In this document: piece by piece, positions 5,400-30,242 of the stretch
How the letters are laid out: the number at the start of each line of letters is the position of its first letter
How positions within the stretch are numbered: position 1 is the first letter of the stretch
From: Escherichia coli
Lineage (GTDB): Bacteria; Pseudomonadota; Gammaproteobacteria; Enterobacterales; Enterobacteriaceae
Length of the DNA stretch: 64,000 nucleotides
Assembly (NCBI RefSeq): GCF_003019035.1
Contig: NZ_CP027447.1
Strand: one strand, 5' to 3'
Program-made: the position numbers and the translations under genes
The notes under the pieces: generated by a model
Told to the model about the DNA's origin: nothing
Seen by the model: only the letters and a program-made list of their open reading frames with translations
Database searches by the model: none

Positions 5400-5450
5400 A
5401 TGACACGCGTTCAATTTAAACACCACCATCATCACCATCATCCTGACTAG
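5400..5450 (+). CDS. hisL: his operon leader peptide
   Basis: 16-codon ORF MTRVQFKHHHHHHHPD with seven consecutive His codons. Confidence 0.9.
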   Translation: MTRVQFKHHHHHHHPD

Positions 5451-5513
5451 TCTTTCAGGCGATGTGTGCTGGAAGACATTCAGATCTTCCAGTGGTGCAT
5501 GAACGCATGAGAA

Positions 5514-5548: not shown

Positions 5549-5595
5549 TTGCGCGGTTGATAACGGTTCAGACAGGTTTAAAGAGGAATAAGAAA

Positions 5596-6495
5596 ATGAC
5601 AGACAACTCTCGTTTACGCATAGCTATGCAGAAATCAGGCCGTTTAAGTGATGACTCACGCGAATTACTGGCGCGCTGTGGCATTAAAATCAATCTTCAC
5701 ACCCAGCGCCTGATTGCGATGGCAGAAAACATGCCGATTGATATTCTGCGCGTGCGTGACGATGACATTCCCGGTCTGGTAATGGACGGCGTGGTAGACC
5801 TTGGGATTATCGGCGAAAACGTGCTGGAAGAAGAGCTGCTTAACCGCCGCGCCCAGGGTGAAGATCCGCGCTACTTTACCCTGCGTCGTCTGGATTTCGG
5901 CGGCTGCCGCCTTTCGCTGGCAACGCCGGTTGATGAAGCCTGGGACGGTCCGCTCTCCTTAAACGGTAAACGTATCGCCACCTCTTATCCTCACCTGCTC
6001 AAGCGTTATCTCGACCAGAAAGGTATCTCTTTTAAATCCTGCTTACTGAACGGTTCTGTCGAAGTTGCGCCGCGTGCCGGACTGGCGGATGCGATTTGCG
6101 ATCTGGTTTCCACCGGTGCCACGCTGGAAGCTAACGGCCTGCGCGAAGTCGAAGTTATCTACCGCTCGAAAGCCTGCCTAATCCAGCGCGATGGCGAAAT
6201 GGAAGAATCCAAACAGCAACTGATCGACAAACTGCTGACCCGTATTCAGGGTGTTATCCAGGCGCGCGAATCAAAATACATCATGATGCACGCACCGACC
6301 GAACGCCTGGATGAAGTCATCGCCCTGCTGCCAGGTGCCGAACGCCCAACTATTCTGCCGCTGGCAGGTGACCAACAGCGCGTAGCGATGCACATGGTCA
6401 GCAGCGAAACCCTGTTCTGGGAAACGATGGAAAAACTGAAAGCGCTGGGTGCCAGTTCAATTCTGGTCCTGCCGATTGAGAAGATGATGGAGTGA
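5596..6495 (+). CDS. hisG: ATP phosphoribosyltransferase
   Basis: translation [29 protein letters not shown]..., 299 aa from the internal ATG preceded by AAGAGG SD. Confidence 0.9.
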
Positions 6496-6500
6496 TCGCC

Positions 6501-12017
<5,517 letters not shown>

Positions 12018-12024
<7 letters not shown>

Positions 12025-12629
12025 CAGAACAACAACGTCGCGAACTGGACTGGGAAAAAACCGACGGACTGCTGCCGGTGATTGTGCAACATGCGGTATC
12101 CGGCGAAGTGTTAATGCTGGGCTATATGAATCCAGAAGCCTTAGACAAAACCCTAGAAAGCGGCAAAGTCACCTTCTTCTCGCGCACTAAACAGCGACTG
12201 TGGACCAAAGGCGAAACGTCGGGCAATTTCCTCAACGTAGTGAGTATTGCGCCGGACTGCGACAACGACACGTTACTGGTGCTGGCGAATCCCATCGGGC
12301 CAACCTGCCACAAAGGCACCAGTAGCTGCTTCGGCAACACCGCTCACCAGTGGCTGTTCCTGTATCAACTGGAACAACTGCTCGCCGAACGTAAATCTGC
12401 CGACCCGAAAACCTCTTACACAGCCAAACTGTATGCCAGCGGCACCAAGCGCATTGCGCAAAAAGTGGGCGAAGAAGGCGTAGAAACCGCACTGGCAGCA
12501 ACGGTACATGACCGCTTTGAGCTGACCAACGAGGCATCTGACTTGATGTATCACCTGCTGGTATTGTTGCAGGATCAGGATCTGGATTTAACGACGGTAA
12601 TTGAGAACCTGCGTAAACGGCATCAGTGA
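12018..12629 (+). CDS. hisI: bifunctional phosphoribosyl-AMP cyclohydrolase / phosphoribosyl-ATP pyrophosphatase
   Basis: 203 aa; last gene of the his operon. Confidence 0.9.
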
Positions 12630-12641: not shown

Positions 12642-12706
12642 GCGGATGCGATGTTGTTGTCGCATCCGGCAAAATAAATATCCTCCGGCATAGCCGGAGG
12701 TTTTTC
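12642..12706. terminator. bidirectional terminator region after hisI (two hairpins)
   Basis: hairpin GCGGATGCGA..TCGCATCCGC, then hairpin CCTCCGGC-ata-GCCGGAGG followed by TTTTT on plus and a T-rich run on minus. Confidence 0.55.
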
Positions 12707-12729
12707 AAATGCGCCTATAAGGCTCTCTT

Positions 12730-13437
12730 ACCAGCCGCGCCCTAACAGGCGCACACGATCTGACATTTGCATCCAACTTCGTTACTTACGGCCCGTAAAC
12801 GGGCTGCCCGGATAGGGAATCGATAACTGCTCTCCCATTTTATCCTCTTCAAGCTGGTGCTTTATGTAATCCTGTATCTTCGCCGTGTTCTTACCCACCG
12901 TATCGACGTAATACCCTCTGCACCAGAACTCCCTGTTCCTGTATTTGAATTTCAAATCAACAAACTGCTCGTAAAGCATTAGACTGCTTTTCCCTTTCAG
13001 ATATCCCATAAAGCCGGATACGCTCATTTTGGGCGGGATCTCCACAAGCATATGGATATGATCTGCACAGCATTCAGCTTCCAGAATCCGTACACTTTTC
13101 CACTCACACAGCTTTCTCAAAATACAGCCTATTGCTCTACGCTTCTCTCTGTAGAACACCTGTCTTCGGTATTTTGGCGCAAATACTATGTGATATTTAC
13201 AGTTCCATCGGGTGTGCGCTAAGCTCTTTTCGTTCCCCATTGGGACCCCCTTTTGATTTCTTGTTTGACACTTGCAGTTGCCAGACCGCAAGGTGTTTTA
13301 ACAAATCAAAAGGGGTTTTAATAACTGGCTCAAAGCTGAAAGCTTTCCGGAACCCCCAGCCTAGCTGGGGGTTTTCTGTGCACAAAAAAACGGGCAAGGT
13401 GTCACCACCCTGCCCATTTTCTTTAAAACCGAAAAGA
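12730..13437 (-). mobile_element. IS200-family (IS200/IS605) insertion sequence, about 0.7 kb; ends approximate (+/- 15 bp)
   Basis: single Y1/HuH transposase gene plus the characteristic structured end (hairpins AACCCCCAGCCTAGCTGGGGGTT and GGGCAAGGTGTCACCACCCTGCCC at 13365-13430) upstream of tnpA; no terminal inverted repeats expected for this family. Confidence 0.7.
12782..13240 (-). CDS. tnpA: IS200-type Y1 (HuH) transposase TnpA
   Basis: 152 aa from MGNEKSLAHTRWNCKYHIVFAPKYRR...; HuH motif (HIHMLV) and C-terminal catalytic Tyr region (YIKHQ). Confidence 0.85.
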   Translation of the reverse strand: MGNEKSLAHTRWNCKYHIVFAPKYRRQVFYREKRRAIGCILRKLCEWKSVRILEAECCADHIHMLVEIPPKMSVSGFMGYLKGKSSLMLYEQFVDLKFKYRNREFWCRGYYVDTVGKNTAKIQDYIKHQLEEDKMGEQLSIPYPGSPFTGRK

Positions 13438-14421
13438 TTACTTCACGTTGTAATTACGCAGAGCGTTACGCCCCAACACAATCCCCGCGCCCACCATACC
13501 GCCCAGCAGCACTGCCAGAATCAAGGTGATTGCTTTCTTCGGGCTATCGCGACGAATTGGCAGTGTGGGTTTCATAACGTAACGGTAGGCATGAATATCA
13601 AGATCATCAACCTTCAGACTTTCGATATCCAGCAGGTTTTGACGAGTCTGATAATAGTTTGGCGAGAACACAAGCGGACGAGTCGCTTCGTGCTTAATCA
13701 TCGACCCCAGTGCTTCGCTACCTAACAAAAGCAACGTGTCCTGAGTAATATTTTCACCAGTCTGCTGAATCTGCGGCTTTGTTACCTGCGCCTGATTCGC
13801 ATACTGCAACGCTTCCTGAATCTGGCGGATACGCAGCGTTTTTTGCTCCTGAGCCACCACTTCCTGAGTTTTCAGGGAATCCTGCAATGTTTTCATGCCC
13901 AACGCAATATTATCCTTCAGGTCCTTTTCCAGCTCTTCATTCACTCGGTCATCAACTTGTTGAATGTATTCAGCCAGCTTTTTCTGTGCATCCGCCGCCG
14001 TTTTCCCAACATAAGAAACAGCTAACGGTAACGGCTGGTTTTTAACAGCGGGCTCGATGGTCAGTTTTTCGCGTTCTTCCTGATTATCCAGCGTTTCCGC
14101 TAATGCAGAGAAAGCGGAACTGAAGCGACCAATCAACGCCTCCTGTAAATCAGCTACTTTTGGCGCAGCCTGGCCATAAATTACATTCATGGCGTTGTTA
14201 TAGCCGGCAATTTGCCCCACATCAGGTTGAGTGACAATGGCTGTTGATGTCCATTGCTCTTTCGCTACTGCCAGGTATCCAATAGCCAACACGATAGCCA
14301 CAATGACTGTGGCGATAATGGTCATCTTACCGCGCCACAGTTGTACCAGTAAATCAATTAAATCAATCTGTTCCGGGTCATTGTTGTGCCCAGAAATATT
14401 ATTATTTTCAACTTTCATCAT
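13438..14421 (-). CDS. wzzB: O-antigen chain-length determinant (polysaccharide co-polymerase 1)
   Basis: 327 aa, N- and C-terminal TM segments flanking a long coiled periplasmic region; adjacent to ugd as in E. coli. Confidence 0.85.
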   Translation of the reverse strand: MMKVENNNISGHNNDPEQIDLIDLLVQLWRGKMTIIATVIVAIVLAIGYLAVAKEQWTSTAIVTQPDVGQIAGYNNAMNVIYGQAAPKVADLQEALIGRFSSAFSALAETLDNQEEREKLTIEPAVKNQPLPLAVSYVGKTAADAQKKLAEYIQQVDDRVNEELEKDLKDNIALGMKTLQDSLKTQEVVAQEQKTLRIRQIQEALQYANQAQVTKPQIQQTGENITQDTLLLLGSEALGSMIKHEATRPLVFSPNYYQTRQNLLDIESLKVDDLDIHAYRYVMKPTLPIRRDSPKKAITLILAVLLGGMVGAGIVLGRNALRNYNVK

Positions 14422-14562
14422 TACCCTAACAGACGGAAAATTTCAGGTCGCCATAGTTTAGCGATAATCTGTATGAATGCCATAGGATAAACAATAAATA
14501 TAATGAATTGTTACATGAACATAGATACCAACTACCGCCAAAAATCATCTGATTACAGATAG

Positions 14563-15729
14563 TTAGTCGCTACCGAAAAGATCGCGGGTGTAGACCTTGT
14601 CTGCTGCATCTTTAAGCTCTTCTGACATTCGATTAGAGATAATGACATCAGCCTGTTGCTTAAAAGTCGCGAGATCACGTTCCAGACGTGAATTGAAAAA
14701 CATTTCTTCCTTCATTACCGGTTCATAGATAATCACTTCTACCCCCTTAGCTTTGATACGCTTCATGATCCCCTGAATGGAAGACGCACGAAAGTTATCT
14801 GAACCGCTCTTCATAATTAGGCGATATATCCCTACGACTTTTGGTTTACGCGACAAGATAGCATCGGCAATAAAGTCTTTGCGGGTACGGTTAGCTTCAA
14901 CGATGGCAGAAATGATGTTATTTGGCACAGACTGGTAATTTGCCAGAAGCTGCTTGGTATCTTTCGGCAAACAGTAACCACCGTAACCAAATGATGGATT
15001 GTTGTAATGGTTGCCGATACGAGGATCAAGACAAACACCTTCAATGATTTGACGGGTGTTCAATCCTAGGCTTTCTGCATAACTGTCCAGCTCGTTAAAG
15101 TACGCCACGCGCATTGCAAGGTAAGTATTGGCAAACAGTTTAATGGCCTCTGCTTCTGTTGAATCAGTAAACAGAGTCGGGATATTTTGCTTAATCGCCC
15201 CTTCCTGTAATAACGCGGCAAAACGCTGTGCACGTTCAGAACGTTCGCCGATCACAATACGGGAAGGATGAAGGTTATCGTAAAGGGCTTTGCCTTCTCG
15301 GAGGAATTCAGGGGAGAAAATGATGTTCTCAGTCTTGAATTTTTTTTGCATTGCGGCCGTAAAACCTACCGGAACCGTGGACTTAATAATCATTACGGCA
15401 CAAGGATTTATTTCTGTAACATCTTTAATTACTGATTCTACGCTAGATGTATTGAAATAATTGGTTTTCGGATCATAGTCGGTCGGGGTTGCGATGATTA
15501 CATAATCAGCATTCCGGTAGGCTTCTTTTTTATCTAATGTGGCCTTAAAACGTATTTTGTCTGATTGCAAAAATTGCTGAATTTCTTTATCAACAATAGG
15601 AGATATCCGATCATTTAGCATTGCAACGCGAGATGGCAAAATATCTAATGCTACAACGTTATGATTTTGTGCGATTAATAGCCCATTAGACAGGCCAACA
15701 TAACCGGTTCCGGAAATGGTGATTTTCAT
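14563..15729 (-). CDS. ugd: UDP-glucose 6-dehydrogenase
   Basis: 388 aa, N-terminal NAD-binding GTGYVG motif and conserved catalytic Cys region (GGYCLPKD). Confidence 0.9.
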
Positions 15730-15918
15730 TTCATGCTCTCAGAATTAACTTAACTATGAATCATGATGTTTTAGCACCCTGATAAGAGTTAAAAGTTTTA
15801 ACGCCACGATGATGTCTAGTCAACGAAACGAAAAACATTTCAGATTTTCTTTATAAGAATAGCTGCTATTTATTAAGTTAGTATTAAGCAATGAAATTAA
15901 ATCAATAAGATTGATAGC

Positions 15919-15949
15919 AAAAAAAAGCCCGGCGATAAATGCCGGGCCT
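15919..15949 (-). terminator. rho-independent terminator downstream of gnd
   Basis: GCCCGGC-gataaat-GCCGGGC hairpin; on the minus strand it is followed by a run of 8 T. Confidence 0.6.
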
Positions 15950-15973
15950 TAGTTTATTACTGATTAAATCAGA

Positions 15974-17380
15974 TTAATCCAGCCATTCGGTGTGGAATAC
16001 ACCTTCTTTATCAATGCGCTTATAGGTATGTGCACCGAAATAGTCACGCTGCGCCTGGATCAAGTTTGCTGGCAGTACTGCGGCACGATAGCTGTCATAA
16101 TAAGCAACCGCTGCAGAGAAGGTAGGTACTGGAATGCCGTTCTGCACCGCATAAGCAAGAACATCACGCAGAGCTTGCTGGTAATCGTCGGCAATTTTCT
16201 TAAAGTACGGGGCTAACAGCAGGTTAGCGATCTTCGGATTTTCAGCGTAAGCATCAGTGATTTTCTGCAGGAACTGAGCGCGGATGATACAGCCAGCACG
16301 GAAGATCTTCGCGATTTCACCATAGTTCAGATCCCAGTTGTACTCTTCAGACGCGGCACGTAGCTGTGAGAAGCCCTGAGCGTAAGAAACAATCTTACCC
16401 AGATAAAGCGCACGACGAACTTTCTCAATGAACTCAGCTTTATCGCCTGCTGGTTGTGCTTGCGGACCGGACAGTACTTTAGACGCTGCAACACGCTGCT
16501 CTTTGAGAGAAGAGATGTAACGTGCAAACACTGATTCAGTGATCAGTGACAGAGGCTCACCGAGATCCAGTGCGCTCTGGCTAGTCCACTTACCAGTACC
16601 TTTGTTAGCTGCCTCATCCAGAATCACATCGACCAGGTAGTTACCGTCTTCATCTTTTTTGGTGAAGATATCTTTAGTGATGTCGATCAGGTAGCTGCTC
16701 AGTTCACCGTTGTTCCACTCGGTAAAGGTTTGTGCCAGTTCTTCGTTAGAGAGATTCAGACCACCTTTCAGCAGAGAATAGGCTTCAGCAATCAGTTGCA
16801 TATCACCGTATTCAATACCGTTGTGAACCATCTTCACATAGTGACCTGCGCCATCGGCACCAATATAGGTAACGCACGGTTCGCCATCTTCAGCCACGGC
16901 GGCGATTTTGGTCAGGATAGGTGCAACCAGTTCATAGGCTTCTTTCTGCCCACCAGGCATGATAGAAGGTCCTTTCAGCGCGCCCTCTTCACCACCGGAA
17001 ACACCCGTACCGATGAAGTTAAAGCCTTCTGCAGAAAGCTCCCGGTTACGACGAATAGTATCCTGGAAGAAGGTATTACCACCATCAATGATGATATCTC
17101 CTTTATCGAGATATGGTTTAAGGGAATCAATAGCAGCATCCGTGCCTGCACCTGCTTTCACCATTAACAGGATGCGACGAGGCGTTTCCAGAGATTCAAC
17201 GAACTCTTTCACCGTATAGTAAGGAACCAGTTTCTTGCCTGGATTTTCAGCAATCACTTCTTCCGTCTTTTCACGGGAACGGTTGAAAATAGAGACGGTA
17301 TAACCACGGCTTTCGATGTTGAGCGCGAGGTTGCGTCCCATCACTGCCATACCGACGACGCCGATCTGTTGCTTTGACAT
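15974..17380 (-). CDS. gnd: 6-phosphogluconate dehydrogenase (decarboxylating)
   Basis: 468 aa, [27 protein letters not shown]... Confidence 0.9.
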
Positions 17381-17573
17381 TGTTTACTCCTGTCAGGGGT
17401 GGTCACCGCGGGGTTGCGCGGCTTGAATATGAAACAGATGTTAACTCAAGTTACATGAATGTGTGTAGTGCTGAATTTCATTAATGCAACAAATACCGTT
17501 CATCTTCCTTTATACAGACATCCACTTGTAACCAAACCTACGCGCACATATAAGCGAAGATAAATCTATAACA

Positions 17574-18998
17574 TCAAGAAATTAAAGATATAATATTCCC
17601 AAGCACATTCGTAACATATTGCTTAGCCTGATTTTCATCACTGCCTTCAGCGTAACAACGGAGTTCAGGGGCATTTCCGGAAGGACGGAGATGTATAATA
17701 TCACCATTAGTTAAAATAAATCTTGCACCATCCGTTTCATCAATAGTGGAACAGGATAATGATTCATACCCTAATTTATTAAAGAAATTATTGGGTGATG
17801 AAATGGCATTTTTTATAATTTTCTGACTTGACTCTGAAGGAAAGTTTTTCACTCTATCTGACCAAGTGAATCGCTGTGGAAGATTATTAACCAGTTGAGA
17901 GATAGTACTATTGCGAGAAGCTATTAAGAGCATTAACGCTGGTAATACTGCATCTCGAGTAGGTAACGCATTTAATTCTTTGCCATTAATTTGTAAATCG
18001 GAGGCAAGCAGAAAACCGCCATTAGCTTCAAAACCAGCGACTGAATCAAATTGTTTAGCAAGTTCTGAAAACGCTGCAATCACATAAGGAGAGCCAATTT
18101 TAGTCCGTTGTATATTTGCAAATTTATGAGATTGTTCAATTGCTGTATTACAACTCACTGGAATAGCCAACGCCTTGATATTAAGTTCAATAGCCGTAAG
18201 TAATCCCAGAATATCGCCTCTTAGCCATTCACCATTTTCATCGGCAACTAAAGGGCGATCACCATCACCATCTGTTGAGAAAATTGCATCGAGATTGTAT
18301 TTTTTAGACCACTCTCTTGCAAGTAGACGATCTTCTTCGCTAACTGCTTCCGTATCAATAGGAACGAACTCATCACTTCTACCGAGGGAGATGACCTCAG
18401 CACCCAATTGATTAAAAAGTGGAGCATATAAATCTCGTCCTGCACTAGAATGTTCATAGATCCCAATTCTCTTCCCCTTTAAAATATCGGAATTAAAAAG
18501 AGAAACATAACGTTCCAGGTAGCAATCCGCACCTTGAGTACTTGTTTCAAGATGAGGTAATACATCTACAGGAGAAAAAACATATTCACTATTTACTATT
18601 GCTAACTCATCCTCTTTTGTGATTTCACCATCTGGACGGTAAAATTTCAAACCATTACGGTCAAAAGGTATGTGACTACCGGTAACCATTATGCAGGGGA
18701 TGTTTTTCTGTATGGAATAATGAGCTAATGCAGGGGTCGGAATTACACCATGATATTCAACAGCGAACCCATGTTGTTTGATAGCGAACGCGCATGCCTG
18801 AGCAATTTCATAACTACTCGGGCGGTTGTCAATGGCTAAAGCAACTTTATTAAAATTGTATTTGTCATCAATAACAGAAAGAAACGCATGACTGAAGGCT
18901 GCACAAACATCATGGGTAAAATCGATGACTAAACCACGAGCACCACTAGTGCCGAAAGCAATATTGCTATCGGTAATGATTTTGTTAGCATTTAACAT
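17574..18998 (-). CDS. alpha-D-phosphohexomutase (ManB-like phosphomannomutase candidate), O-antigen cluster copy
   Basis: 474 aa; phosphoserine-loop motif TGSHIPFDRNG; last gene of the AT-rich cluster; clearly different from the colanic acid CpsG. Confidence 0.65.
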   Translation of the reverse strand: MLNANKIITDSNIAFGTSGARGLVIDFTHDVCAAFSHAFLSVIDDKYNFNKVALAIDNRPSSYEIAQACAFAIKQHGFAVEYHGVIPTPALAHYSIQKNIPCIMVTGSHIPFDRNGLKFYRPDGEITKEDELAIVNSEYVFSPVDVLPHLETSTQGADCYLERYVSLFNSDILKGKRIGIYEHSSAGRDLYAPLFNQLGAEVISLGRSDEFVPIDTEAVSEEDRLLAREWSKKYNLDAIFSTDGDGDRPLVADENGEWLRGDILGLLTAIELNIKALAIPVSCNTAIEQSHKFANIQRTKIGSPYVIAAFSELAKQFDSVAGFEANGGFLLASDLQINGKELNALPTRDAVLPALMLLIASRNSTISQLVNNLPQRFTWSDRVKNFPSESSQKIIKNAISSPNNFFNKLGYESLSCSTIDETDGARFILTNGDIIHLRPSGNAPELRCYAEGSDENQAKQYVTNVLGNIISLIS

Positions 18999-19003
18999 GA
19001 TGA

Positions 19004-19750
19004 TTACTTCTTAATAAATTGAGGAAGTTTGGATAGATTTTTATACGCTAAAGCTATTGGCCAGATAATACCATTCTGTTTCATAGCGCGAATATCTTCC
19101 ATTGATTTATTGATCATGGAAGATACTGAGCGATTGCTAATTCCACCAACACGCATTTTCACTAATACTTTTGGTAAGTACGCTATTGAAATACGCTGTT
19201 TTAAAATATAACGTAATAATGAGTCATAATCAGCAGATATTCGGTAATCTAATGAAAAACAACCAAACTGACTATAACAATCGCGTTTCATATAAAATGA
19301 TGGGTGTGGCGGCATCCAACCTAGTTTCATCTTCAAACGGCTAAATGAGCCACTCTTCCATAATCTAATACGTTTAGTTGTATCATTTTTGGCAACATAC
19401 TCCAAATCACCATAAACAGCATCACACCCTGAACTTTCAAATGTTTTTACTATATCTGCAATAGCATCGTCATAAGCAAGTAAGTCATCAGAGTGCAAAA
19501 ATCCAATTATATCACCAGAAGCTGCTTGAATACCTTTATTCAGTGCATCATAAATGCCATTGTCGGGTTCGCAAATGATTGTTGAAACTCTTGTACATTT
19601 ACTCTTGATTAGCTCTATTGTATTATCTTTCGATGCCCCATCTACAACTATATATTCAATATCTGAATGTGTTTGTTTTTCCAGAGAGAGTAATGTATCA
19701 AGAAGCGTTTTTTCACTATTATAAGTTGCTGTGATAATTGAAATCCGCAT
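19004..19750 (-). CDS. family 2 glycosyltransferase (GT-A fold)
   Basis: 248 aa, N-terminal ISIITATYN...VVDGASKD pattern typical of GT2. Confidence 0.65.
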   Translation of the reverse strand: MRISIITATYNSEKTLLDTLLSLEKQTHSDIEYIVVDGASKDNTIELIKSKCTRVSTIICEPDNGIYDALNKGIQAASGDIIGFLHSDDLLAYDDAIADIVKTFESSGCDAVYGDLEYVAKNDTTKRIRLWKSGSFSRLKMKLGWMPPHPSFYMKRDCYSQFGCFSLDYRISADYDSLLRYILKQRISIAYLPKVLVKMRVGGISNRSVSSMINKSMEDIRAMKQNGIIWPIALAYKNLSKLPQFIKK

Positions 19751-21156
19751 TAGTATCCAACTCCAGAAGAAGAAACTCTTATAACATCATCCTCTTCCAA
19801 GTAGACTCCTGATCTAACCTCAATTATTTCAAGTGGGATCTTGCCAGGATTTTCAATGGCATGTGGAACACCAACAGGTATATATGTTGATTCATTTTCT
19901 GAAACAAGATAAGTTTTCTCCTCAAGATGAACTTTAGCTGTCCCCGAGACAACAATCCAATGTTCAGTACGATGGTAATGGATCTGCTTAGCGGTAATGT
20001 GACCCGGTAATACAATCACATGTTTAACCTGAAAGCGTTGCCCTTCAGCTATAGTGTCATGACTGCCCCAAGGACGAAAAATTTCCCGATGTTGTAAATA
20101 TTCTGTTCGATTATTCTTTTTAAGCTGAGCTACGATGTTTTTAACTTGCTGAACTTTATCTTTATGAGCAACTAATACTGCATCTTTCGTTTCAACGACA
20201 ACCAAATCCTTTACGCCCACGGCCCCAATAAGTCTATGCTGCGAATAAAGATAACTATCTGTAGCATCCTCAACCAAAACATCACCACGAATGGCATTGC
20301 CGCTTTGGTCTTTTGAACTTATTTCCCACAGCGCAGACCATGACCCAACATCACTCCATTGCGCATCCAATGGTACGACCACAGCTTCAGCTGTTTTTTC
20401 CATAACGGCATAGTCGATTGACTCTTCAGGGCAGCAAGAAAAAGAAGAGTTATCCAAGCGGATAAAATCTAAATCTTGAGTCGAGGAAGCTAAGGATTGC
20501 TGACAACTCTCTAGAATATCTGGACGGAATTTTTTTAGTTCATCGATGAATACAGATGCTCTGAACATAAACATTCCACTATTCCAAAGATAACCGCCAT
20601 CTGACAAATACCGCTGAGCTAATTCTAGCTCTGGCTTTTCAACAAAAGCTGCAACTTTATAACCTTGCCCACTAAGTGGATCACCTGACTTAATATAGCC
20701 ATACCCTGTCTCTGGAGCTGTTGGAACGATGCCAAATGTGACCAACTTACCTTGCTGCGCAAAGTCCTTCGCGGCCAAAACTGCTGTAATGAAACTATTC
20801 TCATCCTGAATTTCATGGTCAGCCGCAAGAACCAAAAGTATAGGATCCTCTCCACTTGCCGTTGCCTGAAGCGCTGCAAGGGCTACAGCAGGTGCCGTAT
20901 TGCGCCCAACAGGCTCAAGCAAAATCCCACTATGCTTTAAACCAACTTTACGTAATTGTTCAGCAACAATGAAACGATGTGATTCATTACAAATGATCAA
21001 AGCAGGATTGTGTTCAATCTTTTCTAGCCGTCGCAAAGTCTCTTGCAACATAGTTAAGCGGCTATTTAAAGACAGAAATTGTTTCGGATAAAGTGTACGT
21101 GAAAGAGGCCATAATCTGGTACCAGATCCACCGGCCATGACAACGGGAAGTAGCAT
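19750..21156 (-). CDS. manC: mannose-1-phosphate guanylyltransferase (ManC), O-antigen cluster copy
   Basis: 468 aa, close paralogue of CpsB further downstream ([15 protein letters not shown]... C-terminal cupin region). Confidence 0.85.
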   Translation of the reverse strand: MLLPVVMAGGSGTRLWPLSRTLYPKQFLSLNSRLTMLQETLRRLEKIEHNPALIICNESHRFIVAEQLRKVGLKHSGILLEPVGRNTAPAVALAALQATASGEDPILLVLAADHEIQDENSFITAVLAAKDFAQQGKLVTFGIVPTAPETGYGYIKSGDPLSGQGYKVAAFVEKPELELAQRYLSDGGYLWNSGMFMFRASVFIDELKKFRPDILESCQQSLASSTQDLDFIRLDNSSFSCCPEESIDYAVMEKTAEAVVVPLDAQWSDVGSWSALWEISSKDQSGNAIRGDVLVEDATDSYLYSQHRLIGAVGVKDLVVVETKDAVLVAHKDKVQQVKNIVAQLKKNNRTEYLQHREIFRPWGSHDTIAEGQRFQVKHVIVLPGHITAKQIHYHRTEHWIVVSGTAKVHLEEKTYLVSENESTYIPVGVPHAIENPGKIPLEIIEVRSGVYLEEDDVIRVSSSGVGY

Positions 21157-21161
21157 ATCTA

Positions 21162-21623
21162 TTACCTTGATATAAAATAATTTTTGGTATATTGATGAAC
21201 TGTAGTGCTATTAAGCAACGTTACTACATCAAACCACTTGTAGGAATTATGCTGAATCGTTGGTAGGCGAAGTTGCTGCGGATTAATTTGAATTTCATAT
21301 CCATGCACTACGTAGTGTGTAGAAAAATCTACTTCAGAAAAATTGTCATTGTAAAAGTGTTCATACACACCAAGAAATATGGCCTCACCAAGACTAGTTT
21401 GAACGCCTAACTCTTCAAATGTGATCCTTTTAAAAGCATCCTCGAATGACTCGTCCTTAAAAATTCGCCCTCCAGGCACAAACCAATAATTTTTTGCGGG
21501 GCGATTCAGGCGCTGCCCAAGCAGCGCCTCTCCTTTATCGTTTCTAATTACGAGGTCAATCGAGATTAGAGGAGTATGCTTGACTATTGTTTTAAATAAC
21601 TCATATTCTAATCTCTTTTTCAT
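21162..21623 (-). CDS. gmm: GDP-mannose mannosyl hydrolase (Nudix), O-antigen cluster copy
   Basis: 153 aa, alignable by eye with the colanic acid Gmm/WcaH ([20 protein letters not shown]). Confidence 0.75.
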   Translation of the reverse strand: MKKRLEYELFKTIVKHTPLISIDLVIRNDKGEALLGQRLNRPAKNYWFVPGGRIFKDESFEDAFKRITFEELGVQTSLGEAIFLGVYEHFYNDNFSEVDFSTHYVVHGYEIQINPQQLRLPTIQHNSYKWFDVVTLLNSTTVHQYTKNYFISR

Positions 21624-21625
21624 AA

Positions 21626-22591
21626 CTATCCCCGAAAAGAATCAATATTCTCAAGAAACCATTTATATGTTAATGATAGACCTTCATGTAAATTATAGCG
21701 ATGTTGCCAGCCCAAGTTTTTGAGTCGGGTAACGTCCATAAGTTTTCGCGGGGTGCCATCTGGTTTGGTCGCGTCAAAAACAATTTTTCCTTGATAACCC
21801 ACTACAGAAGCCATTGTTTCAGCCATTTCACGTATAGAACAATCCACCCCCGTACCTACATTAATATGAGATAACATTGGTTGTGTATTTTGTTGATAAA
21901 TTGCGTCCTCTAACTCCATCACATGAACCGAGGCAGCAGCCATATCATCAACATATAAAAACTCACGCATCGGCATTCCCGTGCCCCAGACAATAACTTC
22001 TTGTGCACCACTTTCTTTTGCCTCATGGAATCTACGCATAAGCGCCGGAATAACATGGGAGTTTTCAGGATGGAAGTTATCATTCGAACCATAAAGATTA
22101 GTAGGCATTACACTTCTATAATCGCGACCATATTGACGATTATAAGACTCACATAATTTTATGCCCGCAATCTTAGCAATTGCGTATGGCTCATTAGTTG
22201 GCTCAAGTATGCCCGTCAAAAGTGCAGACTCTTTCATCGGCTGCTCAGCAAATTTTGGATAAATACAGCTAGAGCCTAAAAAAAGTAATTTTTGAATTCC
22301 AACCTTGTGAGCTGAATGTATAATATTACTCTCAATCATGAGATTCTGATAAATGAATTCTGCTGGAAATGTATTATTGGCATAAATACCACCTACTTTT
22401 GCCGCAGCAAGATAAACCTGATCAACCCTCTCTCTCTCAAAAAATGCCTCAACATCCTTCTGCACGGTCAGATCGAGTTCTTTGTGTGTTTTAACCACTA
22501 ACTCGATATCATCACGCAGCGATAATTGTCGGCAAATAGCAGAGCCAACCATGCCCTGGTGCCCAGCAACATATACTCTTTTCTTTATCAT
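21626..22591 (-). CDS. fcl: GDP-L-fucose synthase, O-antigen cluster copy
   Basis: 321 aa; long identical stretches with the colanic acid Fcl ([40 protein letters not shown]). Confidence 0.85.
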
Positions 22592-22594
22592 GTA

Positions 22595-23728
22595 TTAACG
22601 CTCCAGAGAAACCGAAACATCATAACCATGGCTTTTAAGAAGTGCATGTTGTTTCGCTTTTAACAAATCGCTAGCAACCATTTCTGCACACATCTCTTCA
22701 ACTGTAATCTCTGGTTCCCAGCCTAATAGATTTTTTGCTTTTGCAGGGTCACCTAAGAGTGTTTCAACTTCAGCAGGACGGAAATAACGAGGATCAACCC
22801 GAACTATAACGTCTCCAACATTTACACCAATAGCACAATCGGAAATTTTATTAACTACTGTGGCTATCTCATCTACACCCTCACCAGAGAATTCAAGTTC
22901 AAGTCCGACTTCTTTAGCAGCCATACGGACAAATTCACGCACAGATATCTGTTTACCTGTGGCAATGACAAAATCCTCTGGATGATCTTGCTGAAGCATC
23001 ATCCATTGCATGCGAACATAATCTTTAGCGTGTCCCCAGTCACGCAACGAATCCAGATTACCCAAATATAAGCATTGTTCGATCCCCTGAGAAATATTAG
23101 CTATTGCACGAGTAATTTTACGGGTAACAAAAGTTTCTCCACGGCGTGGCGATTCATGGTTAAAAAGAATACCATTACAAGCATATATACCATAAGATTC
23201 ACGGTAGTTAACTGTTATCCAGTAAGCATACATCTTAGCTACAGCATAAGGCGAACGCGGGTAGAATGGAGTTGTTTCACGCTGAGGAATCTCTTGCACT
23301 AAACCAAAAAGTTCTGAAGTAGATGCTTGATAGAAACGTGTTTTTTTCTCCAGCCCACAGATTCGTATTGCTTCTAATAAACGTAATGTCCCTATTGCAT
23401 CTACATCTGCTGTATATTCTGGTGACTCGAATGACACTGCGACATGGGATTGTGCACCAAGGTTATAAATTTCATCCGGTTGAATTTCTTGGATTAAACG
23501 GATCAGATTCGATGTATCTGTTAAATCCCCATAGTGTAAAATAAAATTAGGCTCATCAACGAATCGTGATTGATATATATGATCAATTCTATCAGTGTTA
23601 AATGACGATGCTCGGCGTTTTATACCATGTACTTCATAACCTTTTTCAATAAGAAATTCTGCAAGATATGAACCATCTTGTCCAGTTACGCCTGTGATAA
23701 ATGCAACTTTTTTATTCATTTTAATCAT
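22595..23728 (-). CDS. gmd: GDP-mannose 4,6-dehydratase, O-antigen cluster copy
   Basis: 377 aa, [16 protein letters not shown] motif; paralogue of the colanic acid gmd; true start may be the internal Met (MNKKVAF). Confidence 0.85.
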
Positions 23729-23737
23729 GTTATGTTC

Positions 23738-24769
23738 CTAAATATTCAACTCATTATAAACTTTAATCGTTTCATTAACACATTTTGACCATGAAAATTT
23801 TTGCGCCTGCAGTAAACCTCTTTCGATCATAACATTTCTTTTTAAATTAACTAATTCTAAAGCTTCTTTTAACGTAAACTCATTAATATCATCAATATAA
23901 ATAGGCGCATTCCCCCCTACTTCCGGCAACGAGGATGTGTTTGCACAAATAACTGGACATCCGGCCTGCATAGCTTCTAGGACAGGTATTCCAAACCCCT
24001 CATAACTGGAAGGGTAAACAAGTGCATATGCAGTATTATACTGTATATTTAAATCTTCATTACTCAAAAATGTAAAATGTTCATATCTATTTTTTAAATA
24101 TTTTTCAAGGAGTTCTCTTTCATATTTTTTAAGCGAGCCTCCGCCTACAATTGTAAGCTTTAAGCCATGTAATTTCCCTACAGCTTTGACTGCAAGAACG
24201 AAATTTTTATAACCTTCTCTGGCACCGACAAACAAAACTGAATTATTTACTCTCATATCAGACATGTTAGAAATATGTTTATATGATGGGGATACACCAT
24301 TATAAATCACTCTAATTTTATCTTCGCTAATTGGACAGTACTTAAGTAAATCTCTAGCAGTGTTGTTTGAAATACAAATTACGATATCACTATTCTTGAT
24401 AGCATGATATTTTTGAAGAGAATGAATAAATTTTGACATTCCTCCCCTGTATTTTTCATAGGTGAAATCATGAACAGTTGTAACATTTTTCACATTCAAA
24501 TTAGGACTTTTATGAACTCGATAATAACTTGAGTGTAAAACCCTAGTTTTAATATCACTTACATTTCTATATCTTTCTAAAATTCTTGGCTTACGATATT
24601 GCAACTTTAAGTCGCTTGTATCAAACTCAAATTCTTTATTTTTATACAATAGAATTTCAGCTTGGTAATTTGATTTCACCATTCCTTGGATCAACTCATT
24701 AAAGTATACACTTATTCCACCAAATGATTGGAGATTATAAATAATCCCATCGATAGTTACCATTATCAT
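23738..24769 (-). CDS. GT-B fold glycosyltransferase (GT4-like)
   Basis: 343 aa; C-terminal region with EGFGIPVLEAM motif characteristic of GT4 retaining transferases. Confidence 0.65.
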   Translation of the reverse strand: MIMVTIDGIIYNLQSFGGISVYFNELIQGMVKSNYQAEILLYKNKEFEFDTSDLKLQYRKPRILERYRNVSDIKTRVLHSSYYRVHKSPNLNVKNVTTVHDFTYEKYRGGMSKFIHSLQKYHAIKNSDIVICISNNTARDLLKYCPISEDKIRVIYNGVSPSYKHISNMSDMRVNNSVLFVGAREGYKNFVLAVKAVGKLHGLKLTIVGGGSLKKYERELLEKYLKNRYEHFTFLSNEDLNIQYNTAYALVYPSSYEGFGIPVLEAMQAGCPVICANTSSLPEVGGNAPIYIDDINEFTLKEALELVNLKRNVMIERGLLQAQKFSWSKCVNETIKVYNELNI

Positions 24770-26022
24770 CGCCCTCGCAAGGTAATACGTTCGATTAGAA
24801 CGAACAATATCAAAAAGAAGATCAGTAACAATACATATGCCGGCCCAGCAAAATAAGTTCCAAATGAAGGTGAAATGAGAATTATAGAAAGCAAAAAAAA
24901 GGATGCAGAGTTCGTAATTACTTTTGCATTAAACATTTTAAGCTTAGCAAAAATATAGCCATAAAAGATATTCATAGGTGAAAGAAAAGTTAAAATGATC
25001 AGTCCAACATATCCATAATCAACAAAATTATCCATCCCTTTTGAAAAAGCAGGTGTATGCCCCGACTCTGCAGCTCCTGGATAATAGATTTCATTTACAT
25101 GCAGAAATCCATATACAAAAGGTTTATCAGGAAACAAACCTCTCGGTATATAAGACCAAAATTGGCTGAAATAGACTGTGCCATTGAAAAACTTAACCAC
25201 ACCTTTATCAATATCTTGTAGCAAATAAATACTGTTTTGATACTGGTCAAAATAAGACAATACTACATCGACATTCATATTTCCAATAGCTAAAAATAAA
25301 TTATAGAGAATGGCACACGCTGCCAGGGGTGTAACTAAAATCAGGCCAAATTTTAGAAATCTAGATTTATTAAGACTTAACACTGCAAGATAAAAAATCG
25401 CAAATGAAAGAATAAAGGTTTTCGATCCAAGAAAAAAAACCAAGGTACAATAGAATATCGCGCATAAAAATAATTTTATTTCCGAGCGTAAAGCCAACGC
25501 CCTGGAAAAATAAGATACCGAAAGCATACTTAAAGAAAAGGCATATAAAACACCATTACCTTCTCGATAGTTTTGATAACCATCCCTGGGATTCGTCAAC
25601 CATCCAGAAATACCTATTTCTGACTTTGAAGAAAGAAGAACAAATAATGTAATAAACAGAACCAATGTAATATTTGATATTCTTTTTAATTTTGTATGCG
25701 AAATTAAGCAAGTTAAATAGATCTCTCTATTTTTGAATGCTATATTAAAAATAAAATAAAAGAAAATTATAGATAAAACACCCACAAAAGAGTATATGTT
25801 ATATATAAATAAAGCCTCATTATAATATTGATTTAAAGCAAAGTCTGAACCGTAGAAAAGAGGAGCCAAAATATTTTCCAATAGAAAAACCGGAAATAAA
25901 ATAATGGCGTAAATGGTAAAGGGATTGATAATTGTAAGTCTTAGCGTTTTCGTCGCTAATAAAGAAAAAGAATAATATAGTACTATAGCTAGTGTAACAT
26001 TTAAACAATATATTATTACCAC
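24766..26022 (-). CDS. wzy: O-antigen polymerase candidate
   Basis: 418 aa, very hydrophobic multi-pass membrane protein with low-complexity AT-rich codon usage, located between glycosyltransferase genes; start codon uncertain. Confidence 0.55.
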   Translation of the reverse strand: MVIIYCLNVTLAIVLYYSFSLLATKTLRLTIINPFTIYAIILFPVFLLENILAPLFYGSDFALNQYYNEALFIYNIYSFVGVLSIIFFYFIFNIAFKNREIYLTCLISHTKLKRISNITLVLFITLFVLLSSKSEIGISGWLTNPRDGYQNYREGNGVLYAFSLSMLSVSYFSRALALRSEIKLFLCAIFYCTLVFFLGSKTFILSFAIFYLAVLSLNKSRFLKFGLILVTPLAACAILYNLFLAIGNMNVDVVLSYFDQYQNSIYLLQDIDKGVVKFFNGTVYFSQFWSYIPRGLFPDKPFVYGFLHVNEIYYPGAAESGHTPAFSKGMDNFVDYGYVGLIILTFLSPMNIFYGYIFAKLKMFNAKVITNSASFFLLSIILISPSFGTYFAGPAYVLLLIFFLILFVLIERITLRGR

Positions 26023-26032
26023 ATCCTCCCCC

Positions 26033-26842
26033 CTATCTTAAACCGAATAATTTGCGCTTAATTGATTTTGTTTTTTGATATAATGCTTGAGGAACAATCA
26101 CTTTAAATAAAACTTGCAATGAATTATAGACAGCAAATTTTATTTTATATGATAAGGGCATATGAATATTATTTTTAGCTAGAATATAAGCAATTTCTTT
26201 CTTGACTAATTTTTTATTAGATTCATTTGAACTTACACCCGAAGCATCCATTATGGATACAGGAAAATTCACATAATGCATCGTAGATGGATCTATTGTT
26301 CTTATCATAAAATCACTATCAGCAGCAATTTTTAGTGTTGTATCAAAGCGATTAGCATTATCTTTAAAAAAGCTAGAATGCTGGAAAGTACCCTGATGAG
26401 GAGGAAGTGAAGGCCGACCACATTCCCACTTTTTCTTTATTTTTCCGTAAACTCCAACTATATTATCTTCATCACTAAAATATACATCACCATATATAGT
26501 TGTTGCACTCATATTTTCGTGAATGGCATTTGCTATTTTTGAAAGAGTATTATTTTCATAGAATGTATCGCCAGCTCCCATAAAAATAACCCAATCGCCA
26601 TTTATGTGAGGAAGAGCTTTATTCCAAGCGTCGTATATTCCTTGATCAGATTCGCATAAAAAATAATCTATAATATCAATATATCTATAAATATATTCTA
26701 GTGTTGATTTGTTAGAGTTGCCGTCTATAACAATCCATTGAATATTACAATAATTTTGATTTTTAATAGATTCCGCAGTCTTGCAGAAATCTTCCTCACA
26801 ATTATACGTCGATGTTATTATAGTAATCTGTAAGCCATTCAT
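26033..26842 (-). CDS. family 2 glycosyltransferase
   Basis: 269 aa, N-terminal ITIITSTYN...VIDGNS pattern typical of GT2. Confidence 0.65.
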   Translation of the reverse strand: MNGLQITIITSTYNCEEDFCKTAESIKNQNYCNIQWIVIDGNSNKSTLEYIYRYIDIIDYFLCESDQGIYDAWNKALPHINGDWVIFMGAGDTFYENNTLSKIANAIHENMSATTIYGDVYFSDEDNIVGVYGKIKKKWECGRPSLPPHQGTFQHSSFFKDNANRFDTTLKIAADSDFMIRTIDPSTMHYVNFPVSIMDASGVSSNESNKKLVKKEIAYILAKNNIHMPLSYKIKFAVYNSLQVLFKVIVPQALYQKTKSIKRKLFGLR

Positions 26843-26848
26843 CTTAAC

Positions 26849-27559
26849 TCACTTATTTTTCATGGCAATATATTTTAATCTTAATTCTTTAATTAAGGTC
26901 TTTACTTTACTATCAGTGGAATACTCAATATTAAACGTGCCAGAGACTCCTCTTATTTTGGGAATAGTTGTTCCAATAACTCCTTTTAATTTATTATTTT
27001 TAATTTGCTCAAAAAAAATGTGTTCTAAATAAACACCATCAAGGTCACGCACAGATTTATAAGAATTAGCAAAAAAGTCCCAATATATTTTTTTATTTAC
27101 AACATAAAACCTTGTATCAATCATATTTTCATTCAGAAAAGGAACTGGTATAAAAAAAGCTTTACCATTGAATGCTTTTATACATTGCTTATAATTATCG
27201 ACGTATAGTTTTGATGTTATTTTTGCGAAACTTTCAGCATTAGACAAATAGCGACTATTCATTAATGCATACTCAATTATTTCACCCTCTCCGTAACCTT
27301 TACCATAAGATTTAACACTTTCTGTATCATTTTTGAAATGTATTATCTCGATCGAATCTTTATTAAGTATTTGTTTATCATTATGAATATCTTTCGTCAA
27401 ATCATAATCACTACCATCACATATTACTATAGAATCAGCATTCTTAGACAATTCTCTTATCGCTTTCAATGTATGTAATAATCTTGAATTTTCATCAGAA
27501 AGATTTGTAAGAGGAGCATTAGGTGAGATACAAGAAGTCACTAATACTGGGATTTTCAT
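26849..27559 (-). CDS. hypothetical protein in O-antigen cluster (possible unclassified glycosyltransferase)
   Basis: 236 aa from the ATG at 27559 (MKIPVLVTSCISP...), start overlapping the wzx stop as ATGA; the longer 282-aa reading would overlap wzx by about 140 nt; no family recognisable by eye. Confidence 0.45.
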   Translation of the reverse strand: MKIPVLVTSCISPNAPLTNLSDENSRLLHTLKAIRELSKNADSIVICDGSDYDLTKDIHNDKQILNKDSIEIIHFKNDTESVKSYGKGYGEGEIIEYALMNSRYLSNAESFAKITSKLYVDNYKQCIKAFNGKAFFIPVPFLNENMIDTRFYVVNKKIYWDFFANSYKSVRDLDGVYLEHIFFEQIKNNKLKGVIGTTIPKIRGVSGTFNIEYSTDSKVKTLIKELRLKYIAMKNK

Positions 27560-28800
27560 TTTTTCTTTTCCAGCCTCAACGAAATTAACATTAGTATAAA
27601 ATAATCGGCGGTGACTCTTGCGCTCCAGGCATAAGCCACACCTGCTACAGAAAAATACATAATTGAAAAATATAAAACTAGCAGATATGGAATACATTCA
27701 ACAAGATGAATGAGACCCGTAATTTTTGCATAACCTTTCGATTGGATTTGAGCAAATGGAACTTGAGCAAGAGAGTTGAATACAAAACCTACTAATAATA
27801 TTTGAAATATATAAGGACTCTCAGCGCTATATTGTTTTCCAAGCCATAAAGTTATAATATCACTAGCCTTCAAAGAAAACATAATAGATATAACTATACT
27901 AGTTACACTTATTAATAACGTAGCCTCTTTTATTATTTTTTTTCGCTCATTTTTTGTATTATTCTTGCATAGAGCAGGAAAAATTGTCCTTGCTATAGTT
28001 GTCGGTAATATAAGTAACTTTGAAATTGCATCCGCAGGAGCAATATATAACGAAGCTTTAGCAGGGCCAACTGCATTTGATAAGATAAATCGGTCAATAT
28101 TTGTAAGCAATGGGTTAATTATACTACTAATACTCGCCCATCCTCCAAAACTTAATAGTGCTTTTGTTTTACTTAGACTAAAATCCATTGTAAGCCTATT
28201 ATTTCTAAAAACAAAGAACACGCTTAAAAGAGCACCAGTTATTCTCGCAATCACCAATCCCAAAGTAGCATTAAGCAAACCAACATTTCCATGAATGAAA
28301 ATAACTGGTAGTAGCGCAGTTAACACACCTGTAATTGTTTTTTGTACATTTAATAATTTGAATTTTTCATATCCTTCTAATATCCCCCAACAAACCATAT
28401 TAAGAAGATAAAATGGCAGACAGTAGGATAAAACACTTATAGCATATGCAACACTTTCAGTTTGTTCCGGACCACTAATTAAGGATGCAATCTTATGGTT
28501 GCAGTAATAAAAAATTACGGATACAACAACACCAATAGATAATGTTAATAAAAATGATGTTGTAATTATTTGACTGATTGCCTTTTTGTCGTTTTTATTT
28601 AATGATATTTCACGTACAACGGCTCGCGAAAGTCCGAGATCAAATATACTTGCGTATCCAACTATTGTAAAAAACATTAAAAAAAAGCCAAAGTTAGTTA
28701 TTCCTAACTCCCTTGCCAAATACCCCATCGCAGGTATTGACAATAAAGTTGGGATTGCATACCCAGCCAAATTTATTAAACTATTTATTTTAATACTCAT
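27556..28800 (-). CDS. wzx: O-antigen flippase
   Basis: 414 aa, multi-pass membrane protein of polysaccharide-transporter type immediately downstream of rfbC. Confidence 0.7.
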   Translation of the reverse strand: MSIKINSLINLAGYAIPTLLSIPAMGYLARELGITNFGFFLMFFTIVGYASIFDLGLSRAVVREISLNKNDKKAISQIITTSFLLTLSIGVVVSVIFYYCNHKIASLISGPEQTESVAYAISVLSYCLPFYLLNMVCWGILEGYEKFKLLNVQKTITGVLTALLPVIFIHGNVGLLNATLGLVIARITGALLSVFFVFRNNRLTMDFSLSKTKALLSFGGWASISSIINPLLTNIDRFILSNAVGPAKASLYIAPADAISKLLILPTTIARTIFPALCKNNTKNERKKIIKEATLLISVTSIVISIMFSLKASDIITLWLGKQYSAESPYIFQILLVGFVFNSLAQVPFAQIQSKGYAKITGLIHLVECIPYLLVLYFSIMYFSVAGVAYAWSARVTADYFILMLISLRLEKKK

Positions 28801-28816
28801 TTTTAATTATCTTTTG

Positions 28817-29359
28817 TCAATAATTATTTTGTATAAATGGAGTACCCAAACAATCTTTTTGTGATATAAGAGGTTCTTTGTATAATTGCCAATCTATGTT
28901 AAGTAAAGCATCATTCCAAATAATACATTTCTCATGTTCTTTTGAGTAAAAATTATTGGTCTTATACAATATTTCTGAACCTTCTTCTTTTACATAAAAA
29001 CCATGCGCAAACCCTTCCGGGATCCACAACTGGCGCTTATTCTCAGCAGACAAATTCACTCCAACCCATTTCCCAAATGTAGGTGACGATTTACGAATAT
29101 CAACCGCAACATCAAAAACTTCACCAACAACACAGCGCACCAGTTTTCCTTGAGCATAAGGTTCTAACTGATAATGCAACCCTCGTAAAACACCTTTTCT
29201 GGACTTAGAATGATTGTCCTGAACAAACTCAACCTTACGCCCTACAACCTCTTCGAAAACTTTCTGATTAAAGCTTTCCATAAAGAAGCCACGTTCATCC
29301 CCAAAAACTTTTGGTTCAAAAATCAGCACATCAGGAATTTCAGTTTTAATTACGTTCAT
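28817..29359 (-). CDS. rfbC: dTDP-4-dehydrorhamnose 3,5-epimerase
   Basis: 180 aa, cupin-fold RmlC-like sequence (FGDERGFFMESF..., GLHYQ). Confidence 0.85.
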   Translation of the reverse strand: MNVIKTEIPDVLIFEPKVFGDERGFFMESFNQKVFEEVVGRKVEFVQDNHSKSRKGVLRGLHYQLEPYAQGKLVRCVVGEVFDVAVDIRKSSPTFGKWVGVNLSAENKRQLWIPEGFAHGFYVKEEGSEILYKTNNFYSKEHEKCIIWNDALLNIDWQLYKEPLISQKDCLGTPFIQNNY

Positions 29360-29363
29360 CTTA

Positions 29364-30242
29364 TTAATAACCTTTAATCATTTTGAGCAGATACTGACCA
29401 TAAGCATTTTTCTTCAACGGTTCGGCTAATACTTTTACCTGCTCAGCATCAATAAACCCTTTACGATAAGCAATTTCTTCCGGACAGGAAACCTTTAGTC
29501 CCTGGCGCTCTTCAATGGTGGCAATGAAGTTGCTTGCTTCAATAAGACTTTGATGCGTCCCTGTATCCAGCCATGCATAGCCACGCCCCATCATAGCGAC
29601 AGACAAACGTCCTTGTTCCATATAAATACGGTTAATATCGGTAATTTCCAGTTCACCTCGGGCAGAAGGCTTAAGGTTTTTCGCCATTTCCACAACGTCA
29701 TTGTCATAGAAATAAAGCCCAGTAACCGCATAGTTACTTTTTGGTTCCAGCGGTTTTTCTTCCAGGCTAATTGCAGTACCGTTATTATCAAACTCCACGA
29801 CACCATAGCGTTCAGGATCATTAACGTGATAAGCAAATACCGTTGCACCGATTTCTTTGTTAACAGCAGCTTCCATTAATTTTGGCAAGTCGTGTCCATA
29901 GAAGATATTATCACCAAGCACAAGTGCACAATCATCACCTCCAATAAAGTCTTCACCAATGATAAACGCTTGCGCCAGGCCATCCGGACTCGGTTGTACT
30001 TTATACTGTAGATTAAGCCCCCATTGGCTCCCGTCCCCCAACAAATGTTGGAAACGCGGTGTATCCTGTGGAGTACTGATAATAAGAATATCGCGAATAC
30101 CCGCTAACATAAGCGTTGAAAGCGGATAATAAATCATAGGTTTATCATAAATCGGCAACAGTTGTTTACTCACGGCCATAGTCACAGGATAAAGACGAGT
30201 GCCGGAACCACCAGCTAAAATAATACCTTTACGCGTTTTCAT
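29364..30242 (-). CDS. rfbA: glucose-1-phosphate thymidylyltransferase
   Basis: 292 aa, [21 protein letters not shown]... Confidence 0.9.

Follow-up and report, generated by a model that had tools for sequence, protein, structure and literature searches.

The gnd/O-antigen boundary of an Escherichia coli O36 locus and its mosaic gnd allele

The O36 locus

The window analysed here is a stretch of 64,000 nucleotides of Escherichia coli DNA that matches the chromosome of E. coli SCU-301 (NZ_CP051751.1) at 100% identity at both ends and nearly throughout. The interval of interest, 17,381-17,573, separates gnd from the phosphomannomutase gene with which an O-antigen gene cluster ends. The features around it are as follows.

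5,557-12,629, plus strand: his operon (ORF map, NCBIfam and RefSeq annotation)
12,700-13,400, minus strand: IS200C copy in the hisIE-wzzB interval (RefSeq annotation; 100% identity across O36 genomes)
13,438-14,421, minus strand: wzzB, divergent 'type-2' haplotype
14,563-15,729, minus strand: ugd, divergent 'type-2' haplotype
15,974-17,380, minus strand: gnd, NADP-dependent 6-phosphogluconate dehydrogenase (NCBIfam NF006765, 773 bits)
17,381-17,573, minus strand: gnd-manB intergenic spacer of 193 bp (ORF map, sequence, alignments and GC change point)
17,574-18,998, minus strand: manB-like phosphomannomutase gene, the last gene of the O36 cluster (ORF; RefSeq name 'phosphomannomutase')
17,574-32,354, minus strand: O36 O-antigen gene cluster (NCBIfam scans; PGAP names in the matching RefSeq record)
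32,364-32,371, minus strand: ops element GGCGGTAG, upstream of rfbB at the expected JUMPstart position

Read from the gnd side, the cluster runs manB, GT2, manC, gmm, fcl, gmd, GT4, wzy, GT2, a hypothetical gene, wzx and rfbC/A/D/B. Beyond these lie galF, placed at approximately 32,655-33,548 by mapping over the annotation of the identical RefSeq locus, and then the colanic acid genes; the cluster is thus flanked by galF and gnd. NCBIfam models identified the nucleotide-sugar genes (rfbB/D/A/C, gmd, fcl, gmm, manC and the manB-like gene, for which the mutase matches are only distant) together with four glycosyltransferases, and they agree with the preliminary description, made from the sequence alone, in its calls of gnd and the mutase gene. 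The same models gave a MOP flippase match for wzx and a weak polymerase match for wzy. Because NCBI annotation (PGAP) of the 100%-identical RefSeq locus names the products of these two genes 'O36 family O-antigen flippase' and 'O36 family O-antigen polymerase', the interval studied here is the gnd-proximal end of the O36 O-antigen cluster. It is the right-hand edge of a replaceable O-antigen cassette.

The locus shares with the known E. coli galF-gnd locus of the Wzx/Wzy type its position between galF and gnd, low GC content, wzx and wzy, rmlBDAC, the GDP-fucose pathway genes and an upstream ops element (PMC7685785). There is no essential difference between the two apart from a frameshift flagged by PGAP in wzy; the O36 type is assigned here from the genes. 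In the window, wzy (24,766-26,022) is an open ORF of 418 amino acids with a GTG start, and the PGAP flag appears in all O36 genomes. The stretch 24,962-25,587 within this gene is also the sole difference between the window and the SCU-301 RefSeq record, amounting to about eight substitutions and three small indels, and here the window equals strain 23CRST042 rather than SCU-301. Either a genuine polymorphism or a misassembled record could account for this difference.

The ops motif occurs in five exact copies in the window against 1.1 expected, all on the minus strand. Besides the copy at rfbB, one lies just upstream of wzzB (14,532-14,539), one within the colanic acid region (43,769-43,776) and two upstream of wza (56,443-56,450 and 57,030-57,037). 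The rfbC/A/D/B genes (29,000-32,750) are mosaic among O36 genomes, with stretches of 99.8% identity alternating with others of 87-92%. At the far side of the his operon, the yeeZ-hisL spacer (5,001-5,500) is occupied in most comparison genomes by the yefM-yoeB toxin-antitoxin pair, which is absent in the window and in strain 980-2.

The junction between gnd and the cluster

GC content falls from 0.485 in gnd to 0.409 in the spacer and 0.382 in the phosphomannomutase gene, and GC3 is 0.478 in gnd versus 0.257 in the latter. A two-segment likelihood scan of 15,974-18,998 placed the change point at 17,423 (2-lnL support 17,412-17,451), with a log-likelihood ratio (LLR) of 19.5 versus a maximum of 6.7 in 300 permutations, and the spacer itself divides into 69 bp near gnd at 0.507 and 124 distal bp at 0.355. 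The preliminary description had reported a sharp shift from gnd to a very AT-rich mutase gene and cluster. The shift is borne out, and its change point falls inside the reported interval; the words 'very AT-rich' do not suit the mutase gene (38% GC) but do suit the part of the cluster about 6 kb further in (28-34% GC). The whole O36 cluster has a GC content of 0.371, its GT4-to-wzx core (23,738-28,800) 0.308 and the his operon 0.548. Measured between adjacent 1.4-kb windows, the step at the junction is 0.114, which ranks among the highest 0.7% of values across the 64 kb. Four further steps are about as large, one at 29,476, which is the other edge of the serotype-specific core, and three at 34,688, 49,896 and 56,101. 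Low GC alone is no proof of foreign origin.

The spacer was used to search 5,426 complete E. coli genomes. It matched 1,423 of them, nearly all only over the first 38-72 bases beside gnd; at least 80% of its length was covered in just 182, with an identity of approximately 87% outside O36. Two clusters with matches of this extent were examined, that of O156 and that of a second O36 haplotype represented by strain E06, and both end in this type of manB. In a seven-way alignment, only the last 45-70 nt before the gnd ATG are common to the O types compared. The spacer is thus composite, joining a leader that belongs to gnd with a tail that goes with the O-antigen module, and has the following parts.

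17,381-17,449, minus strand: gnd-proximal part, with a GGAG ribosome-binding site and 5' leader, conserved whatever the O type
17,405-17,422, minus strand: small G+C-rich hairpin in the gnd leader, GCCGCG-CAACCC-CGCGGU (fold and alignment)
17,450-17,573, minus strand: distal part, found only downstream of manB-terminated clusters (O36, O156 and others)

The segment containing the leader hairpin (17,371-17,445) folds at -19.9 kcal/mol (z = -3.3), and the stem is conserved across O types, with a different loop in K-12. The RNA fold of the distal part is no better than that of shuffled sequence (z = 0.04). A promoter and terminator scan of the spacer detected no consensus sigma-70 promoter and no terminator, and an Rfam scan of 15,700-17,800 returned only sub-threshold chance matches, all near the ugd-gnd spacer. 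If the K-12 gnd promoter has a leader of about 56 nt, as we take it to have, the -35 region of gnd is expected in the cassette-linked half of the spacer, and would here be located in its distal part.

The history of the junction can be read from the second O36 haplotype, which consists of two genomes, E06 and 06-00048, in which O36 sits on a different, K-12-type flank. Between 17,414 and about 29,000, both match the window at about 99% identity. Left of the junction, their divergence from it is 5-7% over the 5' half of gnd, 12-14% over the 3' half and 15-23% over ugd and wzzB, and their rfbC/A/D/B genes differ from those of the window by 8-22%. In a one-breakpoint scan, the best divergence breakpoint was at 17,414, with 8.7-9.5% divergence to the left versus 0.9% to the right (LLR 90-103 versus a null maximum of 9.5). 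Since few sites differ between the two O36 haplotypes at the junction, this breakpoint is resolved only to about 40-90 bp, with support extending over 17,405-17,436 in 06-00048 and 17,405-17,497 in E06. The GC change point and the end of cross-serogroup homology (17,425-17,450) fall at the same place, and the breakpoint lies in the loop of the gnd-leader hairpin. Given this agreement of composition and homology, there is good support for an old crossover located 25-65 bp before the gnd start codon. Among the six genomes that carry the gnd allele of the window, there is no breakpoint at the junction, and the crossover is therefore inferred from two genomes representing one other O36 haplotype.

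The allele itself is confined to O36. It is present at 99% identity or more in six of the 5,426 complete genomes, all of them O36; the next best match is 95.7% identical, and most genomes are 90-95% identical to it. The six carriers represent at least three chromosomal backgrounds, and what they share extends well beyond gnd, most clearly in comparison with the O36 strain 23CRST042.

11,653-32,142, unstranded: 20.5-kb block identical to O36 strain 23CRST042 with 1 mismatch (mismatch map)

The ends of this block are in hisF (11,653) and rfbB (32,142), and identity outside it is 92-99%. VTB97420v, 'isolate 23' and Ec1119 share a region from approximately 12,600/12,981 to 29,484 at 99.8% identity, flanked by different gene content. 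The fully conserved IS200C copy lies within the co-transferred block; in two O36 genomes, wzzB is additionally split by ISVsa5. The recent crossovers were located in hisF/hisIE and rfbB/rfbA and spared the junction, which therefore travelled intact with O36, as did gnd.

These results bear on the suggestions in the preliminary description that gnd hitchhikes with O-antigen switching and that the junction is mosaic. Hitchhiking is upheld by an allele restricted to O36 and found across different chromosomal backgrounds, and none of the 5,426 complete genomes is a close relative that combines the same gnd and junction with another O-antigen cluster. The GC scan and the alignments with other lineages located breakpoints both at the junction and inside gnd, and the divergence break in E06 and 06-00048 marks the junction as a historical recombination breakpoint. 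As a site of crossover, however, it served in the old event and not in the latest transfers, which moved about 17-20 kb as one block.

The nearest relatives of the SCU-301 background with other O types are identical to the window only in patches, and there is no clean pair of the same clone with different O types. Strain 980-2 (O1) is identical to the window over 1-4,184, and CLSC36 (O1:H42) is 99.4-100% identical over 51,001-52,500 and 58,500-64,000. On such identity patterns, the rest of the window is itself a patchwork.

The mosaic gnd allele and the affinities of its segments

The gnd gene is 91.2% identical to that of K-12 at the DNA level. Its 124 nucleotide differences, nearly all of them synonymous and at third codon positions, change just five amino acids, and the protein differs from that of Escherichia marmotae by three. 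The allele is a mosaic, as the preliminary description had suspected, made up of three segments with discordant nearest relatives.

15,974-16,216, minus strand: segment I, 3' end, 243 bp (gene nt ~1165-1407), continuous with the 'type-2' ugd/wzzB
16,229-16,631, minus strand: segment II, middle, ~403 bp (gene nt ~750-1152), E. marmotae-like
16,661-17,380, minus strand: segment III, 5' 720 nt, nearest to the IMT5155/SCU-387/E308 allele group

Segment I is 98.4% identical to the allele of IMT5155 (O2), which is of the O2/ST95 type, 86.0% to K-12 and 87.2% to E. marmotae. Segment II reverses this affinity, with 98.5% identity to E. marmotae, 90.1% to IMT5155 and 88.1% to K-12, and segment III is 97.6-97.8% identical to IMT5155, SCU-387 and E308, 94.3% to K-12 and 92.8% to E. 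marmotae. The breakpoints of segment II fall within 16,217-16,228 and 16,632-16,660. Permutation scans support this segmentation, with LLRs of 17.9-19.1 versus maxima of 10.6-15.6, above all 500 permutations. Apart from the six O36 strains, no complete E. coli genome (~5,420) exceeds 88.3% identity over 16,390-16,620 of segment II.

Within segment III, at approximately 16,960-17,090, the allele has an open reading frame for the nested GndA microprotein (PMC11230408; +2 frame, gnd codons ~99-135). This frame has about ten amino-acid differences from K-12 while the overlapping Gnd residues are unchanged.

An exact 27-mer from segment II, searched in metagenome contigs, matched two O36 contigs and four contigs of a different gnd lineage, and an exact-protein look-up from that other lineage led to eight assemblies with what we call the 'type-M' gnd-ugd haplotype. 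Segment II is 98.0-98.5% identical to the eight type-M alleles, equal to their own spread, and the neighbouring segments are 85-93% identical to them. The type-M carrier GCA_013898955.1 (locus L108) has been reclassified as E. marmotae (PMC13293308), and it is the only one tied to that species by a published statement. Proteins identical to type-M Gnd are labelled 'MULTISPECIES [Escherichia]', and no E. coli genome is more than 92.6% identical to a 12.4-kb contig that carries this type of gnd (L097). We infer that segment II was transferred from E. marmotae to E. coli. In two E. marmotae loci, L103 and L108, positions 1-4,161 hold a gmm-manC-GT2-manB module beside gnd that is related to the O36/O156 module (identities of 91% for manC, 87% for GT2 and 74% for manB); there are hints here of O-antigen modules common to E. 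coli and E. marmotae.

The flank to which segment I belongs is itself deeply diverged. Compared with K-12, ugd is 83.8% and wzzB 84.5% identical, and against three other K-12-type genomes the two genes show 77-86% identity per 250-bp window. Identity to IMT5155 is 97.9% for ugd and 91.2% for wzzB, and 716 records fall in the 95-99% identity band for wzzB-ugd. At least three deeply diverged ugd/wzzB haplotypes can be distinguished: that of K-12, 'type 2', which the window shares with O2/ST95-like strains, and that of E. marmotae. Type 2 is approximately 84% identical to the K-12 type, and the E. marmotae haplotype shows identities of about 87% and 84% with these two. A contig search with Gnd found nothing close to segment II or to type-2 ugd among the matches listed, the best being 84-87%; the species among these matches were E. 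albertii, Kluyvera, Enterobacter, Citrobacter and many Firmicutes, without E. ruysiae, E. whittamii, E. fergusonii or Salmonella. The source of the type-2 block of ugd, wzzB and the 3' end of gnd was not found among the species sampled.

Probable recombination history of the boundary

The explanation that best accounts for these observations, with a probability of roughly 0.85, is that this is an ordinary boundary between gnd and the low-GC O36 cluster, and that both the boundary and gnd have been scarred by past recombination as gnd hitchhiked with O-antigen exchange. Homologous recombination, its crossovers lying in conserved sequence on either side, would swap the low-GC cassette between strains, and because gnd directly adjoins the cassette, it would be either dragged along or cut through. 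Three layers of events may be distinguished, the order of which we infer. In an old layer, a crossover at 17,405-17,447 would have joined the O36 cassette to a type-2 gnd-ugd-wzzB flank, the other O36 lineage having the same cassette on its K-12-type flank. In a second layer, two crossovers within gnd (16,217-16,228 and 16,632-16,660) would have put in approximately 0.4 kb from the E. marmotae gene pool; as the changes in this segment are almost entirely synonymous, the enzyme is probably unaffected. In the most recent layer, a unit of 17-20 kb comprising IS200, wzzB, ugd, gnd and O36 would have entered at least three backgrounds through crossovers in hisF/hisIE and rfbB/rfbA.

Three competing explanations were weighed. 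The GC step could instead reflect a contrast in selective or mutational regime between gnd, a highly expressed housekeeping gene whose codon usage is native, and weakly expressed, AT-rich O-antigen genes, with no breakpoint at this place. Essentially every E. coli has the same step, because the cluster is generally low in GC (PMC7685785), the window contains other steps about as large, and the six genomes with the allele have no breakpoint at the junction. Against these points stand the loss of homology with other O types at 17,425-17,450 and the divergence break at 17,414 between the two O36 haplotypes, which is independent of composition, and we regard a regime contrast without recombination as unlikely. 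For gnd itself, accelerated point mutation or diversifying selection without recombination might be invoked, as the gene is known as a hypervariable locus (PMC5429811, PMC6696633). The ratio of five amino-acid to 124 nucleotide changes, almost all of the latter synonymous and at third positions, speaks against both. The differences, moreover, come in blocks, each with its own near-identical partner in IMT5155 or E. marmotae, a pattern that mutation cannot yield, which leaves this explanation very improbable.

We consider it just as improbable that site-specific recombination or transposition inserted a mobile element or genomic island here and that the junction marks its end. Insertion sequences are frequent around the locus (IS200C here, and ISVsa5, IS1, IS5 and ISAs1 in related loci), and a role for them in O-antigen transfer has been noted in review (PMC7685785). 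The interval 17,250-17,750, however, contains no IS ends, tRNA gene or integrase, and the nearest insertion sequence is IS200C, 4 kb away. A search for direct and inverted repeats at the junction gave only short matches at chance level, and crossovers in the flanks occur at differing positions within homologous genes, as is expected of homologous recombination.

Homologous exchange around this boundary agrees with what is known of the gene. The region around rfb was reportedly counted by Milkman among the 'regions of high effective recombination'. In published accounts, gnd is a 'passive hitch-hiker' prone to recombination, and it serves for typing since its alleles follow the serogroup (PMC5429811, PMC2884935); on hitch-hiking and mosaic alleles, both papers refer to Bisercic et al. 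1991, Nelson & Selander 1994 and Tarr et al. 2000, whose accounts are taken here as they are cited there. The O36 allele shares with classic hitch-hiking gnd its linkage to a serogroup, high and mostly synonymous divergence, intragenic breakpoints and one segment that matches another species. Unlike the classic intergeneric cases, in which alleles are Klebsiella- or Citrobacter-like, the match here covers only approximately 0.4 kb and is to E. marmotae (cryptic clade V). Some 284-bp gnd amplicon types are reported to be the same in E. coli and E. marmotae (PMC12826111). Both that study and the O36 allele point to gnd sequence exchanged between the two species; there the evidence consists of 284-bp amplicons, whereas here the breakpoints of a putatively imported segment are mapped in a full-length E. 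coli allele. Replacement of a large cluster together with its flanks, and a patchwork of ancestries around the locus, also appear to be shared with the contemporary O-antigen cluster switching reported in STEC (PMC5359238). The literature that we searched contained no description of this O36-linked gnd mosaic. The phenomenon has been known since the early 1990s; what is new is a mapped, three-part, O36-linked gnd with an E. marmotae-like core.

A wider reading is offered tentatively, at somewhat below an even chance. The O36-linked gnd would represent a recent import of approximately 0.4 kb from E. marmotae; together with the type-2 lineage, it would make the gnd-ugd-wzzB flank a regular entry point for DNA from non-coli Escherichia, and some modules, such as manB-GT2-manC-gmm, would cross between species.

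The practical consequences are limited. As gnd is a target for typing and metabarcoding of E. coli (gndDb, gST), the choice of amplified part could decide whether a mosaic gnd with an E. marmotae-like middle is assigned to the right species or lineage. Serotype switching at this locus moves blocks of 17-20 kb that include ugd and the O-chain length regulator wzzB, and such block-wise switching affects how associations between serotype and lineage are read.
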